Shown: positions 941 to 29,993, counted from the stretch's first letter. The stretch: DNA of 64,000 bases from Arenicellales bacterium (GCA_963422685.1 OY730442.1:2317839-2381838), one strand, 5' to 3'. Notes: generated by a model from the letters alone, not told the origin. Numbers and translations: made by a program.

Positions 941-1017
<77 letters not shown>

Positions 1018-1580
1018 TTTCACCGGCCGGCGGCCAGGCACCGGGGCCTGTCCCTACGTTTTGGCACGGTGCGTATTCCGGGCCGCCTCTTTCCGGCACT
1101 ATTTCACTGGTCGGCGGCCAGGCGCGATTGTAATATATTTTGCAGGTCGTCAACGAGTTGCACCGATGCACGATATCCGACAACAACAACATAACGTAGG
1201 GACAACCCCCCGTGGTTGTCCGGGCCAGGCACCGGGGCCTGGCCCTACGTTTTGGCACGGTGCGTATTCCGGGCCGCCTCTTTCCGGCACTATTTCACCG
1301 GTCGGCGGCCAGGCGTGGTTGTAATATATTTTGCGAGTCGTCAACGAGTTGTCCGGGCCAGGCACCGGGGCCTGTCCCTACGTTTTGGCACGGTGCGTAT
1401 TCCGGGCCGCCTCTTTCCGGCACTATTTCACTGGTCGGCGGCCAGGCGCGATTGTAATATATTTTGCAGGTCGTCAACGAGTTGCACCGATGCACGATAT
1501 CCGACAACAACAACAACATAACGTAGGGACAACCCTCCGTGGTTGTCCGGGACAGGCCCCGGGGCCTGTCCCTACGGTTG
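1018..1580. repeat. Tandem chimeric repeat of about three units (tRNA 3' end + RAYT gene fragment + GTAG-REP hairpins)
   Basis: Units at about 1035-1225, 1226-1358 (internally deleted) and 1359-1576; REP doublets at about 1195-1249 and 1522-1576. Confidence 0.85.
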
Positions 1581-24070: not shown

Positions 24071-25504
24071 TTATTTTTCAATCTGTTCTTTTGAGCTGTA
24101 ATCCGCTGGAATTTTGCTGTTCACCTGTTCGTTCAGCCAGTCAATTGCTGTTTTCTCGTCTTGTTCGATAGCCATTTCCACCGCCCGTTTGGCGCATTCG
24201 AGCAGGTGTTTGGATTGTTTACGCAGGACAAATGATTCGGTTACTTTTTGCTGGATTCGGGTTTGTTTTTTAATCGCAATTATAGGTAAGACAACCTGAG
24301 CAAGTTCGTCCTTGTTGATGGCAGTCAGAATGGTACCACTACACCCTTTCTTGAGTTGCAGCTGTCCAATTATGCTTTTCAATAACACGAGCAAAATTTC
24401 CGAATTCAACACATCAGAATTGATAACATGAAATCCAGTTGAGCAAAGAGCCCCATCATATTTTTCATCTATCAAGGCAATGTTATCCAATGAACCTTCT
24501 ATGGATGAAACAATAACATCTCCTATGACTACCTTACGCCTTGCTCTGCCTGGTAAGTCTTGACCTTCCTCTGTTATACAACCAGTTATTTCGCCATTAC
24601 TGGCAATTTTGGCAAGTTCGATATATCTATACTCTGTTTTATCTTCTGGTTTGAAATTCTTGTCTTTTAAGTAAACCAGATTCCCCAGCGTATCCCAACC
24701 GCCTGCATAGCCTTTTATGGCATTGATTATTTGTTCATATTTCGGTTGATAGTATTCTGCGTCAATGCGTCCGGTTTGTCTTACATCGGAATAGTGTTTT
24801 GTGAACCATAGTCGGTGTTTCGGTTTCCAGTCGGTCAGGCCGAGTTCGGTGAGGAGGAGGGTTTGGGCCTCTTCAACTTTTGATTCTGATGTTTGAATGA
24901 GATTAAAGGATTCGTTAAACGCTGATGTAATTTGTAATTGGAGATCAAGGGAAACTAACGGTATTTCAACTCGCTTGAGTTCTTCGGCATTAACATTCGA
25001 TTGATTTATTGATATTCTCGCCCGCCGTTTTACATCAAGAATGCCATGCTTAGTGTTCAGAAAAGCAGTTAAATATTCCGGTGTAACTTTGTTGGAATCA
25101 GGGACTACACGGACAAGATATGAAGCGAAGACCATGTGTTCGTCGGAGAATTTTCTAAAAATACCAGTTCTGCCAACAAAAGCCTGTGAATTTGTGCGAT
25201 TAAATAGAACATCTTTATCATTTAGCACATAGCTGGTGACTGCGTCGGAACTGATCGGAGCATATTTCAATGTATTCCTATTACACATCATATTGCTGAT
25301 TTCGTTCATTCTGTATATCTTGGTCCCATTTCCCGATTCATTCATTGCAACGGACAAACCGTATTGAGTAGACAACAGTATTTCGCCTATTGGCATATAT
25401 GTAATATTGGGATTTTTATATGGTTGAAAGCACAAGTACTCACTGTCCCAGCGGTAGTCGGGATGTAGGACAGCCTCCGATAAATTTCTGATAGAAGCCT
25501 GCAT
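24071..25504 (-). CDS. Restriction-modification specificity (S) subunit with two target recognition domains
   Basis: Repeated R(W/I)D(S/A)EY motifs, SINQSNVNAEELKRVEIP, SGTILTAINKDEL and helical spacers; AT-rich. Confidence 0.85.
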   Translation of the reverse strand: MQASIRNLSEAVLHPDYRWDSEYLCFQPYKNPNITYMPIGEILLSTQYGLSVAMNESGNGTKIYRMNEISNMMCNRNTLKYAPISSDAVTSYVLNDKDVLFNRTNSQAFVGRTGIFRKFSDEHMVFASYLVRVVPDSNKVTPEYLTAFLNTKHGILDVKRRARISINQSNVNAEELKRVEIPLVSLDLQLQITSAFNESFNLIQTSESKVEEAQTLLLTELGLTDWKPKHRLWFTKHYSDVRQTGRIDAEYYQPKYEQIINAIKGYAGGWDTLGNLVYLKDKNFKPEDKTEYRYIELAKIASNGEITGCITEEGQDLPGRARRKVVIGDVIVSSIEGSLDNIALIDEKYDGALCSTGFHVINSDVLNSEILLVLLKSIIGQLQLKKGCSGTILTAINKDELAQVVLPIIAIKKQTRIQQKVTESFVLRKQSKHLLECAKRAVEMAIEQDEKTAIDWLNEQVNSKIPADYSSKEQIEK

Positions 25505-25506
25505 CC

Positions 25507-26079
25507 TCACCCCTCCACCCAATTTTGCGGATTGTATTTATCCAATTCCCATTTCAGGGGGTTGTTTTTAATATATTCCCGGATGCGGTCTAAATCGTCA
25601 TCGTTGCGAATAACGTGGTCGTAAAAGGAGCGTTGCCATAATTTTCCATCAAAAGACTCCCACCCATCATTCTTGACACCTGTAATATATTTGCAGGTCG
25701 TTAACGATTTGAACCGATGCACGATGTCCGATAACGACAATGTAGGGACAACCCCCTGTGGTTGTCCTTTATCTGGACAGGCACGGGGGCCTGTCCCTAC
25801 ACCCTCGGCACGGGGGCCGTCTCCGACAATGACAATTATGCCGTGGGCGTGATTAGGCATAATCTGGAATTGGTCTGTCTGAATACCGCGATAAAATTTC
25901 GGTAGTTCCTTCCAGGTTCTTTCCACCATTTCCCCTGCGGCATTGGTAATCATGTGGCCATCCATTATTTCACCGAACAATTCGGTTCTGTTCTGCGTAC
26001 AGATGGTCAAAAAATAATATCCTGCCCGGGAATAATCGTAATGCTGTAACCGATTCGGTTTTCTCTCGCGGTTATTCAT
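25507..26079 (-). CDS. REP-associated tyrosine transposase (RAYT; Y1/HUH family)
   Basis: RLQHYDYSRAGYYFLTICT, HUH motif IMPNHAHGII, WQRSFYDHVIR, YIKNNP catalytic tyrosine. Confidence 0.9.
   Translation of the reverse strand: MNNRERKPNRLQHYDYSRAGYYFLTICTQNRTELFGEIMDGHMITNAAGEMVERTWKELPKFYRGIQTDQFQIMPNHAHGIIVIVGDGPRAEGVGTGPRACPDKGQPQGVVPTLSLSDIVHRFKSLTTCKYITGVKNDGWESFDGKLWQRSFYDHVIRNDDDLDRIREYIKNNPLKWELDKYNPQNWVEG
25741..25801. repeat. GTAG-type REP doublet (REPIN-like) inside the RAYT CDS
   Basis: GTAG-GGACAACC-ccctgt-GGTTGTCC and inverted GGACAGGC-acgggg-GCCTGTCC-CTAC. Confidence 0.85.
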
Positions 26080-27667
26080 TGTCGTCCCAAAAACTCAGCT
26101 TCTCACTCTTCGCCCACTTAATAAAAGCTTCGGCGATGCCATCAGGCAATGCACCATTGTGGTTATGAAGATCATGATCAACGATCAGATGCCCATTTGC
26201 ATCCAGCTTGTCTTGACCATTATCGTGTTTCACATAGACGTAATCGCCGGAATTATTTTTACCGCCTTTCTCGGAAACGGCAAAAAATATGGGGTAGTCA
26301 CTGACTTCAGGACAAAGCGGCCCTTTTTCCGAATCCTCATTCCACTTTTGCACACATAGTACGCTGGTCTTGGTGCCGGTATGCGGCTTGAAGGTGTTGC
26401 CGTGCAAGCCGACCACCGCAAGGATACGACCACGCTCTGCGATAAATTCACGGATATGTTTATCGGACGTGTTGTTGAAGCGGCCTTGCGGCAGCACGAT
26501 GGCCATGCGGCCGCCCGGTTTCAAGAAGTCGAGGTTACGCTCAATGAATAGAATATCCCGTCCGACCTTGTTTTGCGCCTTTTTCCTGTCCGCTTTGAAA
26601 CCAAGTTCGTATTGATGCAGGATACGGCTTTCCTTGATGTCGCCTGCGAAAGGCGGATTGGCCATGAGTAAGTCAAACTGGAATTGTTTGTTTTCTCCTG
26701 TTTCCGCTCTCAGCTTTTCCAGCCGTTGAAAGCCATTGCCGTAGGTGTTGATCCATTTTCTGTCCTGTTCGGTTTTGTCGCCCCAGCGGTCAAAGTCCAG
26801 CGTGTTCAAATGCAGAACGTTGGTTTCCCCGTCTCCGGCAATCAGGTTCAGGGTTCGGGCCACCCTGACCGTCTTTTCATCAAAGTCTATACCGAATACC
26901 TTCAGGGCATTTTGTTTGTCGCCCTCCGGGATTTCTTCATTGGTGAACAGATGGCCTGTCAGTTTGAAAATGGTATGCACCGGAAATCCGCAACTGCCTG
27001 ATGCCGTATCAATCATATATTCGCCCCGTTTGGGATTCAGCATTTGTACGCACATATCGATGACATGACGCGGCGTGAAATATTGCCCTTTTTCGCCTTT
27101 GGCGGATTTGTTGACCAGATATTCAAAGGCTTTGTCCACCACCAGCAGATTGGAGTTGAACAACTTCACGTCCTGCAAACTGGAAACACAGACGGCAAGA
27201 TGGCTGTCGGATAGCTCAAAGGTTGCGCTTTCGGGGAACACGCCGCTCCATTGGTTTCTGGCCCGGTTGAACAAATCCTGGATTTTGTTTTTCAGCTCGG
27301 TGTCGGTCTGTCCGGTGCTCCGAAATTCCATGACGCGAAAGCCTTCATCGTCAATACCGCTGACCGCTGTTTTCACTGTTGCATAGTCTGACCCATCAAT
27401 ATAGCTAGGAGGAAGGGGATTACAAGTCGGTGGCGGTTCATGTACGGATGTTTTTGTCACTTGCTTCAGCAAGTAATTGATGATGCCCTTGTCCGGCTGG
27501 CTCTGGTATTCGTCATACAGCTTGGTGAATATGAGCTTGAACACCTCCTCGAATACATCTACCCCGGCATTGGCCAGCACTTCGTCCTCCATTTCCAGAA
27601 TGATGTCTTTCAGGGACTTTCTCTCATTGGCGAGTTTGTCCTTGACAACCAAATCTTTCAGGGTCAA
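26072..27667 (-). CDS. N6-adenine DNA methyltransferase (C-terminal part of a fused endonuclease-methyltransferase), possible TTG restart
   Basis: GQYFTPR, DTASGSCGF (motif I), MANPPF (motif IV), IVLPQG. Confidence 0.8.
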   Translation of the reverse strand: MTLKDLVVKDKLANERKSLKDIILEMEDEVLANAGVDVFEEVFKLIFTKLYDEYQSQPDKGIINYLLKQVTKTSVHEPPPTCNPLPPSYIDGSDYATVKTAVSGIDDEGFRVMEFRSTGQTDTELKNKIQDLFNRARNQWSGVFPESATFELSDSHLAVCVSSLQDVKLFNSNLLVVDKAFEYLVNKSAKGEKGQYFTPRHVIDMCVQMLNPKRGEYMIDTASGSCGFPVHTIFKLTGHLFTNEEIPEGDKQNALKVFGIDFDEKTVRVARTLNLIAGDGETNVLHLNTLDFDRWGDKTEQDRKWINTYGNGFQRLEKLRAETGENKQFQFDLLMANPPFAGDIKESRILHQYELGFKADRKKAQNKVGRDILFIERNLDFLKPGGRMAIVLPQGRFNNTSDKHIREFIAERGRILAVVGLHGNTFKPHTGTKTSVLCVQKWNEDSEKGPLCPEVSDYPIFFAVSEKGGKNNSGDYVYVKHDNGQDKLDANGHLIVDHDLHNHNGALPDGIAEAFIKWAKSEKLSFWDDNE

Positions 27668-28203
27668 GCGTTCGCTGAGTATGTCCTTGAGTGCTTGCGT
27701 TGCCTTAGGGACGCGGTGATGTCTTCACAATAGTTCGGGTCTTTGCGGTGGTAATGGGAAATCTTCTCACCGTTTGTCCATGCACCGATGGGTGCGCCGG
27801 TGGCGTTGCAATAGGAACGAAGCTGGGCCTTGCCGTCTTTCAGCCTGGGCTTTTTTAACTCAACAATGACATAGGCGGTGTCGGAGCGGTCCTTGTCGAA
27901 GATAACGATATCCGCTTTTTTCTTTTCCCGGCCAAAATTGACGGAATATTCAAATGCCAGCCGGTTCTCTGTATAACCGTACTCCTTCATAAGTCGCGCA
28001 GCATAAAGCTGACGGACGATTTCTTCCGGTTTGAGCTAGATTTCCCTGTCCCGAACAACGCAGGTCACAAAAGCGGTTTCCTTGCCTCTGATGGTTTTGG
28101 TGAAGATTTTTCCCCGTAAGGATGCAATTTCATCATCCGAGAACAGGGTGAGATGATCATTGCTGTCTTTGAGTATGGTCTGGAGGGTGTTCGGTGGGGT
28201 CAT
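27664..28203 (-). pseudogene. Disrupted N-terminal PD-(D/E)xK endonuclease (HsdR_N-like) part of the type IIG-like RM gene
   Basis: ATG at 28203; TAG at 28036-28038 (REI*LKPEEIVRQ); ADIVIF...VELKKP nuclease motif; -1 frameshift near 27713-27714. Confidence 0.8.
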
Positions 28204-28515: not shown

Positions 28516-29745
28516 GTGTCGGACTCAAGCATTCCAGATCAATCGAAAGTGGTCATCATCGGCGGCGGTGTCATGGGCGCCAGCGTGGCCTGGCATCTGA
28601 CCCGGCTCGGCTGTGGCGATGTGGTGCTGCTGGAACGCGGGCAACCGGGTTGCGGCACCAGTTGGCATTCGGCGGGGAATATTATCCGCATGAGCACCGA
28701 CCCGGCCAGCGTTGAAATCTATACCTATGGCGCACAATTGCTGGCGCAGCTTCATGCTCGTTATGGCATTGGCTGGCGTCAATGCGGGCGGATGATGATT
28801 GCCGGAAGCAAACGGCGTGTTGCTGAATTTGCATCTATTTATCGCACGCTGAATGATGCCGGGGTTGCCATCGAGATGGTTTCGCCGGATAGCGTAAAAG
28901 ACCGGATTCCGGTTATGAACACCGCCGACGTTCTTGGCGCATTGTGGAGTCCCGGAGACGGGCGGGTCAATCCTGCTGATCTGGTTAATGCCTACATTCG
29001 GGAGGCCCGGGCCCAGGGTGCGCAAATCTGCGAGGGGGTTACCGTGCGCCATGCGCTGACCGATAACGGCCGGGTCACCGGCGTGAGTACGGATCAGGGT
29101 AATGTGCGCTGCCAGGTGGTGGTTAATTGTGCCGGCCTGTGGGCCAGAGAACTCGGGCTGCGCAATGATGTCGCCATACCGTTGTATGCGGTGGAGCATT
29201 TCTATGCGTTGACGGAAAACATCCCGGGGGTTTATGCCGACATGCCCACTTTTCGCGACCCGGACGGATTGATCTATGGTCGTGAGGAAGTGGGCGGCCT
29301 GTTGCTGGGATGCTTTGACCGCAATGCGATTCCGGTTAGTCCGGCGGCATTGCCCGAACCTTTCTGTTTCTCATTGCTGGATGAAAATTGGGATCAGTTC
29401 ATGCCGTATATGCAGCAAGGCATTCATCGCATACCGGCGCTGCAGCACGCCGGTATTCGGACGCTGCTCAATGGGCCGGAGTCATTCACCCCCGATGCCC
29501 AGCCGCACCTTGATGAGGCGCCCAATCTGAAAAATTATTTCGTGTTGGCAGGATTGAGTTCGTCCGGGGTAACGTGCTCTGCTGGCATGGGCAGGGCGTT
29601 GGCCGGCTGGATAGTCGAAAAAGATCCAGGTGTTGATATAACAGCCTTCAGTTTGCGCCGCTATCGACCGGAAGATAATGATGAAGCGAATTTACGCCGA
29701 TGTATCCGCAATGCACCGAGCAGGCACTTTGCGATGGCGCACTAG
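28516..29745 (+). CDS. FAD-dependent oxidoreductase, dimethylglycine/sarcosine dehydrogenase N-terminal (DAO) type, without a GcvT half
   Basis: IIGGGVMG, GTSWHSAG, GDGRVNP, FRDPDG, NGPESFTPD. Confidence 0.85.
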   Translation: MSDSSIPDQSKVVIIGGGVMGASVAWHLTRLGCGDVVLLERGQPGCGTSWHSAGNIIRMSTDPASVEIYTYGAQLLAQLHARYGIGWRQCGRMMIAGSKRRVAEFASIYRTLNDAGVAIEMVSPDSVKDRIPVMNTADVLGALWSPGDGRVNPADLVNAYIREARAQGAQICEGVTVRHALTDNGRVTGVSTDQGNVRCQVVVNCAGLWARELGLRNDVAIPLYAVEHFYALTENIPGVYADMPTFRDPDGLIYGREEVGGLLLGCFDRNAIPVSPAALPEPFCFSLLDENWDQFMPYMQQGIHRIPALQHAGIRTLLNGPESFTPDAQPHLDEAPNLKNYFVLAGLSSSGVTCSAGMGRALAGWIVEKDPGVDITAFSLRRYRPEDNDEANLRRCIRNAPSRHFAMAH

Positions 29746-29975
29746 GCCGTGTTGACGAATTGTAGGGACAGGCCCCCGTGGTTGTCCTTCATCATGGACA
29801 GGCACGGGGGCCTGTCCCTACACCCTCGGCACGGGGGCCGGGCGGGTTTGATGTCTGTCAAAATTGATTCAATCCGCGACCAGATCAAATCGGTGACCAG
29901 TATACTCATGACGACCCTCCTCAAAACTGTTGTGGGATACAATTATTAATAATTTGATAATTCGTCAACACGACC
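29745..29975. mobile_element. 231-bp MITE with 16-bp terminal inverted repeats and a TA duplication, carrying a REP doublet
   Basis: GGCCGTGTTGACGAAT ... ATTCGTCAACACGACC (1 mismatch), flanked by TA on both sides; a second copy ends at position 35. Confidence 0.8.
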
Positions 29976-29993
29976 TAGAGGACAACGGGGCAT

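Follow-up and report, generated by a model that had tools for sequence, protein, structure and literature searches.

Between the methyltransferase (M) and specificity (S) genes of a restriction-modification module, in a 64,000-nt stretch of Arenicellales bacterium DNA (GCA_963422685.1, OY730442.1:2317839-2381838; here called the window), lies a gene for a REP-associated tyrosine transposase (RAYT), REPs being repetitive extragenic palindromes. We consider it probable that this gene, which belongs to TnpA_REP subclass 2.4 and is predicted to be catalytically intact, is cargo in a swappable slot of the M-S module, that it carries its substrate inside its own open reading frame (ORF), and that restriction does not need it. 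RAYTs are the textbook 'domesticated' bacterial transposases. Nesting in restriction operons, in the same orientation and without flanking REPs, gives a RAYT subclass a concrete and testable context, and it raises the question whether a hairpin-specific single-stranded DNA (ssDNA) nuclease aids immunity or restriction cassettes act as vehicles and safe harbors. The REP within the ORF is a source of extragenic copies in this genome and would let the RAYT move as a bare gene together with its substrate. For the locus itself the message is more modest, namely a known family in a decaying operon.

Four ORFs stand head to tail on the minus strand, the broken 5′ part of M, the body of M, the RAYT gene and an hsdS-type gene, and the RAYT ORF includes a REPIN (a REP doublet forming a hairpin) and a further REP remnant:

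27664-28203, minus strand: broken 5′ part of M, with a 55-codon start, a TAG at 28036-28038 and an HSDR_N_2 (PD-(D/E)XK) ORF at 27664-27990

26072-27667, minus strand: methyltransferase part of M, with N6_Mtase and Eco57I matches and with NPPF and AdoMet motifs present (profiles; PADLOC MTase_I)

25507-26079, minus strand: RAYT (TnpA_REP subclass 2.4) gene, 190 aa (Pfam, NCBIfam, AlphaFold2 model, Foldseek)

25802-25831, minus strand: remnant of a third, degenerate REP, which lies upstream of the doublet and encodes GDGPRAEG (repeat D3)

25741-25801, minus strand: REPIN in the RAYT reading frame, a pair of inverted REP units with the double foot GTAG...CTAC, encoding VGTGPRACPDKGQPQGVVPT (palindrome and folding)

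24071-25504, minus strand: intact specificity gene of the hsdS type (477 aa when started at the ATG at 25504), with its Shine-Dalgarno sequence inside the RAYT 3′ end

The junctions are as tight as the first-pass annotation of this DNA had described them. The octamer ATGAATAA at 26072-26079 contains both the RAYT ATG and the M TAA, so that the two genes overlap by 8 nt; the RAYT TGA (25507-25509) is separated by 2 nt from the S ATG (25502-25504), and just upstream of this gap the 3′ end of the RAYT contains a GGAGG. The RAYT start position agrees with that of its homologues, and the S start agrees with that of the S gene in G003, a relative discussed below.

Assignment to the RAYT family is based on profiles, motifs and predicted fold. 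The Pfam Y1_Tnp match exceeds its cut-off at 30 bits, and the best NCBIfam model is REP_Tyr_transpos, which scores 64 bits and falls below its cut-off of 80. The HUH motif reads NHAHG (H77 and H79) and the catalytic tyrosine is Y169, in YIKNNP; all three residues are invariant across 33 RAYT homologues, and Y169 aligns to the catalytic Y115 of E. coli TnpA_REP (4ER8). In the AlphaFold2 model (predicted local distance difference test score, pLDDT, 78) the HUH strand spans residues 77-84 and helix C residues 116-138, and among PDB structures Foldseek ranks 4ER8 first, a complex of E. coli TnpA_REP with a REP hairpin; the IS608 and ISDra2 transposases come next. These motifs and the TnpA_REP fold predict a catalytically intact HUH/Y1 enzyme, in support of the earlier view that an intact gene of this kind had been packed into the operon without disrupting it. 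The gene is the sole full copy within the 2.9-Mb genome; it is not organized like an IS200/IS605 element, being single-copy, without flanking hairpins and overlapping its neighbors. A search retrieved 1,625 RAYT homologues, with lengths of 162-285 aa among the best 120 listed, and their length variation is confined to the loop that follows the HUH motif.

That loop contains the REPIN. Residues 94-113, which begin 15 residues past NHAHG, are encoded by a 61-nt palindrome at 25741-25801, whose 27-nt arms are 81% complementary and within which lie two inner hairpins of 8 bp, both perfect. Its folding energy as ssDNA is -27 to -29 kcal/mol (z of about -5), a stability reached by 0 of 200 shuffled sequences, and two control stretches of the RAYT gene did not fold. 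The palindrome, its folding and its repetition in the genome bear out the earlier observation of a REP doublet translated just after the HUH motif. The encoded peptide (residues 88-112) is disordered in the model, with pLDDT below 50, between the HUH strand and helix C. Across 12 distinct homologue sequences 99% of the stem cells of the first hairpin are paired, and three of its eight stem pairs show compensatory double changes, ACA/TGT, GCA/TGC and GAC/GTC (Thr..Cys, Ala..Cys and Asp..Val), showing that this hairpin is maintained as a DNA structure across homologues. The third, degenerate REP remnant shares GGCACGGGGGCC with the doublet, this string occurring at 25780 and again at 25807. In the close RAYT clade the post-HUH loop is of the VGxGPRACP...GQPQGVxPT type; distant homologues carry other palindrome-derived peptides, e.g. 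VGADLCVCP..GAHTGAPL, VGAGFKPAPT and VGAGLVPA..TTRVAPT.

In-frame REPs between HuH and Y have been described as a trait both striking and peculiar to TnpA_REP subclass 2.4, and 'double-foot' REPs have been reported for it as well (Quentin et al. 2018, PMC6006769), and Bertels et al. 2017 call this subclass RAYT group 4 (Quentin, Siguier, Chandler & Fichant 2018, BMC Genomics 19:475, PMC6006769). The RAYT of the window has the HUH and Y motifs of the subclass, the in-frame REP insertion between beta3 and alphaC (its loop 85-113), no C-terminal extension, 'double-foot' GT[AG]G...C[TC]AC REPs and a wide, patchy distribution over phyla; our assignment to subclass 2.4 is based on the diagnostic insertion and on homologues. 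The in-frame REP noted in the first-pass annotation is therefore a published family trait, neither special to this gene nor new. The maintenance of the hairpin at the DNA level and the outward flow of sequence from the gene, described next, are small additions to it.

REP units matched 7 times in the window, where 0 were expected, and 37 times in the 2.9-Mb genome, 23 of these being identical to the internal unit. No match with up to 3 mismatches was found within about 3.6 kb on either side of the RAYT gene, the nearest being at 29762, so the absence of flanking REPs that had been noted earlier is real and the internal REP is the sole local one. Most subclass 2.4 genes, in contrast, have GTAG-footed REPs within 1 kb (PMC6006769). 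Among 41 genomes compared, REPs were restricted to those that hold RAYT sequence: the source genome (37), G013 (31), G024 (12) and G026 (1, within a RAYT fragment). The other 37 genomes had none, including four with the same M-S operon and no RAYT. One full RAYT with cognate REPs throughout the same genome is the composition of a REPtron. About 13 of the extragenic copies carry, next to the REPIN, 19 nt of RAYT sequence (TTGTCGTTATCGGACATC) encoding LSLSDI, the start of RAYT helix C, which is conserved in RAYTs from other phyla. Because these copies hold codons of a conserved RAYT helix, sequence has flowed outward from the gene in this genome, whereas internal REPs were read as insertions in PMC6006769. 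Nearly all extragenic copies are found in two non-autonomous elements bounded by terminal inverted repeats (TIRs), with the common end CTAGG(T/C)CGTGTTGACGAATT (copies e.g. at C1:439288-439522 and C1:918105-918680). One is a 235-bp miniature inverted-repeat transposable element (MITE) present in about 12 copies; the other, in about 13 copies, is an internally deleted IS5-like element of about 577 bp (IS, insertion sequence) with the RAYT fragment at the deletion junction. The window itself has a copy of the former:

29743-29977, strand not assigned: one of about 12 copies of the TIR-bounded MITE, which includes a copy of the RAYT REPIN together with upstream RAYT sequence (19 nt)

Some further REP loci deserve mention. 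Tandem repeats beside a tRNA gene (window 1002-1580) hold a RAYT fragment of about 120 bp (..LSDIVHRCNSLTTCK) and REP units. At C1:1.91-1.98 Mb, at least nine copies of the REP or of the T2 element occur in about 70 kb together with two of the three canonical hsdR genes of the genome (1936555 and 1973153), and this may be a defense or mobile-element hot region. G013 has two closely related RAYTs (L104:9555-10125 and L110:7856-8431); its copy behind M is frameshifted exactly in the REP loop, and the other, elsewhere in the genome, is intact and has four tandem REPs about 1 kb upstream.

The position behind M is variable. Among relatives of the same bacterial family M is 78-85% identical, and the sequence after its last conserved codons (..SFW) differs from genome to genome. 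This slot is empty in G003, with S directly behind M; it holds a full RhuM gene in G002, RhuM remnants in G001 and G004, RhuM together with a RAYT pseudogene (TAG) in G005, and a RAYT with a frameshift in the REP loop in G013. In L113-L115 a RAYT is part of an intact M(701 aa)-RAYT-S arrangement, and in L121 one lies between an M 3′ fragment, which it overlaps by 4 nt, and a 471-aa ORF without a Pfam match that is presumably S. In G016, copies of an IS with a Mutator-family transposase interrupt the 5′ part of M and the S gene. The RhuM-family genes in the slot (PF13310; PADLOC candidate PDC-S05), at L103:7178-8194 in G002, L106:9660-10673 in G005 and L105:9730-10203 in G001, begin a few bases from the M stop; those of G002 and G005 are full-length, and G001 and G004 have truncated ones.

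The closest relative, L112, has no RAYT. Its M gene is 95.7% identical to that of the window up to the SFW codon, past which the two sequences diverge completely; L112 continues with 120 nt of spacer and with an S that is different and decayed, and similarity resumes in the conserved S 3′ end. In L113 (6540-6650) the end of the RAYT carries a second copy of the M C-terminus, EKFSFWGE*, a duplicated gene end that brackets the cargo like an 'adapter' and that we read as an insertion or recombination scar. In the same chromosomal neighborhood as L113 (CbiX ... CobA), L116:5378-6821 has kept the RAYT, while M is gone and S is a 25-aa remnant. The RAYT had been put forward as an integral component of the operon, and random occupancy of homologous operons with target-site scars had been named beforehand as the finding that would speak against this. 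That is largely what we observe, because the slot holds RAYT, RhuM, both or nothing, L112 lacks the RAYT and L113 bears the scar.

The slot RAYTs belong to at least two to three clades rather than one, and the gene of the window is a mosaic. Over the first 84 residues it shares 75-82% identity with Poribacteria-type RAYTs and 48-56% with other slot residents, while over the last 30 the relation is reversed (73-80% to other slot residents, 47-57% to the Poribacteria type). A single ancient capture of a RAYT into the slot was rejected on these two grounds.

Nesting extends well beyond this operon. A census of 160 subclass 2.4 RAYT loci (37-71% identity, many phyla), in which the immediate neighbors were scanned against Pfam without prior assumption, gave HsdS and HsdR as the commonest neighbor families. 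Upstream, the 124 neighbors scanned included Methylase_S in 9, N6_Mtase/HsdM_N in 3 and HsdR domains in 2; downstream, again of 124, ResIII was found in 7, SWI2_SNF2 in 6, HSDR_N in 6 and Methylase_S in 2. Nesting of the subclass in restriction operons, suggested by the single locus, thus proved recurrent: by BLAST labeling, type I hsd genes surround the RAYT at 19 of the 160 loci (about 12%), without exception in its own orientation. Most are arranged M..S-RAYT-R and a few M-RAYT-S, 4-nt overlaps are frequent, RhuM, VapC or nucleotidyltransferase cargo is sometimes present as well, and all 19 nested RAYTs retain HUH and Y..NP. An earlier result of no restriction link, from a tblastn search of the window M and S against 80 genome loci (three distant M matches, no M-RAYT-S), was overturned by this family-agnostic census.

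In a 166-RAYT tree, 20 state changes are required to place the 22 nested genes, against 21.0 for shuffled labels, and at least six changes are forced by well-supported branches. Because the nested label is scattered over the tree, nesting is a propensity of the whole subclass, with rapid turnover and many independent gains and losses, and not the property of a clade. Upstream neighbors are co-oriented with the RAYT in 107 of 128 loci of the whole set. At two loci among the closest homologues (L119:108-2644 and L118:2167-4675; P0003 and P0013) the RAYT lies behind a dihydroxy-acid dehydratase gene and before a TonB-dependent receptor gene, on the same strand as the dehydratase gene and at a 3-nt gap in L119 or about 110 nt in L118, so that close packing in one orientation behind a host gene also occurs outside restriction operons. 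A word search of the main texts of Quentin 2018 and Bertels 2017 found no mention of a restriction-operon context, and we found no paper that links RAYT, IS200 or COG1943 to restriction operons, subscription journals lying outside the search. Nesting of about one-eighth of the subclass in restriction operons was thus not found in the literature searched.

The RAYT resembles the known cargo of type I operons (prrC, rlo genes, RhuM and DarTG) in that it is co-oriented and tightly packed, the occupancy of its slot varies and a duplicated hsd end has been left as a scar. Such cargo has been singled out by 'guilt-by-embedding' in type I restriction operons, in a study that counts transposase-family HUH enzymes as mobility-associated proteins (Payne et al. 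2024, bioRxiv 10.1101/2024.01.29.577857). Unlike other embedded cargo, the RAYT is a transposase-family HUH enzyme without a known defense phenotype.

We propose that cargo cassettes are exchanged by recombination at conserved gene ends (the 'SFW' codons of M and the 3′ end of S) and that the RAYT spreads between genomes within the variable cassette of the operon. It would have no promoter of its own and would be read from the operon transcript, given the 8-nt overlap upstream and the 2-nt gap downstream. Its activity would be to bind and cut GTAG-footed REP hairpins in ssDNA; carrying its cognate REPIN within its own ORF, it would need no flanking REPs, and restriction would proceed without need for it. 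Several observations weigh against this proposal or leave parts of it without help. Promoter and terminator scans gave counts at or below shuffled expectation, i.e. at chance level, and are uninformative. Nearly all REP copies of the source genome are passengers of the two TIR elements. Because these elements are IS-derived, spread of the copies needs an IS transposase and not RAYT activity, and the argument that REP abundance proves RAYT activity was rejected on this ground. Moreover, if hsd loci make up about 1% of the genome, a rough estimate from three hsdR genes in 2.9 Mb, nesting at about 12% is in excess by about tenfold or more, and the other slot occupants, RhuM/PDC-S05, Fic, AbiEii-like ATPases and VapC, are associated with defense or are toxin-antitoxin genes. 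The excess, together with the uniform co-orientation, could reflect a selected function in restriction operons rather than hitch-hiking.

A function of this kind, whether ssDNA-directed defense or hairpin-based regulation of the operon, appears to us on the unlikely side even with both possibilities taken together. In its broader form, which we doubt, subclass 2.4 RAYTs would be an unrecognized, selected accessory of restriction-modification operons that acts on ssDNA hairpins of an invader or of the operon itself; the RAYT would then add ssDNA-directed immunity or control the expression or exchange of the operon cassette, and the in-ORF REPIN would be a built-in substrate or a self-marker. 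Enriched and always co-oriented nesting, tight and overlapping junctions, slots common to RAYT and defense-associated cargo, and retention of the catalytic motifs in all 19 nested copies would all fit a nuclease of ssDNA hairpins that complements the double-strand-specific enzyme against ssDNA phages, conjugative ssDNA and rolling-circle replicons. We nevertheless regard this defensive role as improbable: about 88% of the subclass, the closest homologues included, lies outside hsd operons, the RAYT outlasts the decay of M and S, nesting is scattered on the tree without a long-lived nested clade, no PADLOC model matches the RAYT, and what has been published on the biochemistry of the family deals with REPs of the host itself. 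Less probable again is self-regulation, in which the REPIN hairpin, present in the mRNA or DNA of the operon and either bound by RAYT or free, would tune expression of the hsd genes or of the RAYT. The hairpin is strong and is kept by compensatory changes despite the disorder of the encoded peptide, and REPs are known to modulate mRNA stability and translation; most subclass members outside hsd operons carry an in-frame REP too, however, so the trait cannot have evolved for hsd regulation.

Two other explanations seem very improbable to us. That the RAYT drives exchange of S-subunit cassettes, switching specificity by cutting and joining at REPs, would be in keeping with the wholly different cassette downstream of M in the source genome and L112, and with the mosaic structure of the RAYT around its REP region. 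This proposal of the first-pass annotation is left unsupported by the cassette breakpoints, which lie at the conserved 3′ ends of M and S and not at REPs; the locus has no REPs outside the RAYT ORF, and RhuM-bearing and empty operons show equal breakpoints without any RAYT. We give just as little credence to the idea that a dying transposase gene was inserted by chance, is neutral and no longer has a role. Variable slot occupancy and the pseudogenized copies in G005 and G013 are what it would predict, yet the ORF of the window is intact, with all catalytic residues and a start that agrees with homologues, and the arrangement recurs in unrelated hsd families. Cargo status, with an intact enzyme and an internal substrate, remains the reading that we prefer.

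The gene shares its fold, its catalytic tyrosine, GTAG-footed REPs and its single copy with E. coli TnpA_REP (4ER8) and with classical REPtrons, and as in classical REPIN-RAYT systems REPs occur, among the relatives, only in RAYT-holding genomes. The classical systems are reportedly those of Nunvar 2010, Bertels & Rainey 2011, Ton-Hoang 2012 and Messing 2012. The RAYT differs from E. coli TnpA_REP in sequence (about 17% identity), in the lack of flanking REPs, in the REP inside the ORF and in its operon location; and in this genome IS-derived TIR elements carry the REP copies, whereas those of the classical system are free REPINs.

The restriction-modification module itself is only in part what had been assumed. 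The RAYT does lie between M and S; the operon is not intact, in that an M gene of about 700 aa has been split. Two lesions account for this. A sense codon at 28036-28038 has become TAG, and the loss of 1 nt near 27713/27714 severs the methyltransferase from the N-terminal domain. With respect to the full nuclease-methylase protein, the M gene of the window is a pseudogene. L112, an independent assembly from another sample (M 96% identical), has exactly the same two lesions, so assembly errors were rejected as their cause; they are real mutations, older than the divergence of the two genomes. Homologues of M measure about 700 aa and have an N-terminal HSDR_N_2 domain followed by N6_Mtase and Eco57I; the search gave 8,000 matches, and among the best 120 listed identity is nowhere below 81%, the source names including Nitrospira and Nitrospirota metagenome-assembled genomes.

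For M, PADLOC gives a type I MTase as its best model. Assignment of M and S to a MADS or BREX system was rejected, the scores being far under the cut-offs (MAD2, 250 bits against 720; MAD5, 104 against 400). Neither the window locus nor the related operons have an HsdR beside the M-S pair, and the three hsdR genes of the genome are elsewhere, so the hsdM, hsdS and hsdR motor of a type I system are not together in one locus. As in BcgI-like type IIB or type I M.S modules, a PD-(D/E)XK domain (HSDR_N_2) is fused to a gamma-type N6 methyltransferase, the S subunit is separate and has two target recognition domains, and no HsdR motor adjoins; unlike in those modules, the fusion is broken in the window and the best PADLOC model is the type I MTase. 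Judged by its domains, the module resembles a two-gene system made up of a nuclease-methylase and a specificity protein. The restriction island has 40-50% G+C, compared with 55-57% in its flanks, and the M.S module was probably acquired horizontally. The family of HSDR_N_2 plus N6_Mtase proteins of about 700 aa to which M belongs (P0121-P0240) is unusually conserved and is always paired with a variable S, with no adjoining HsdR.

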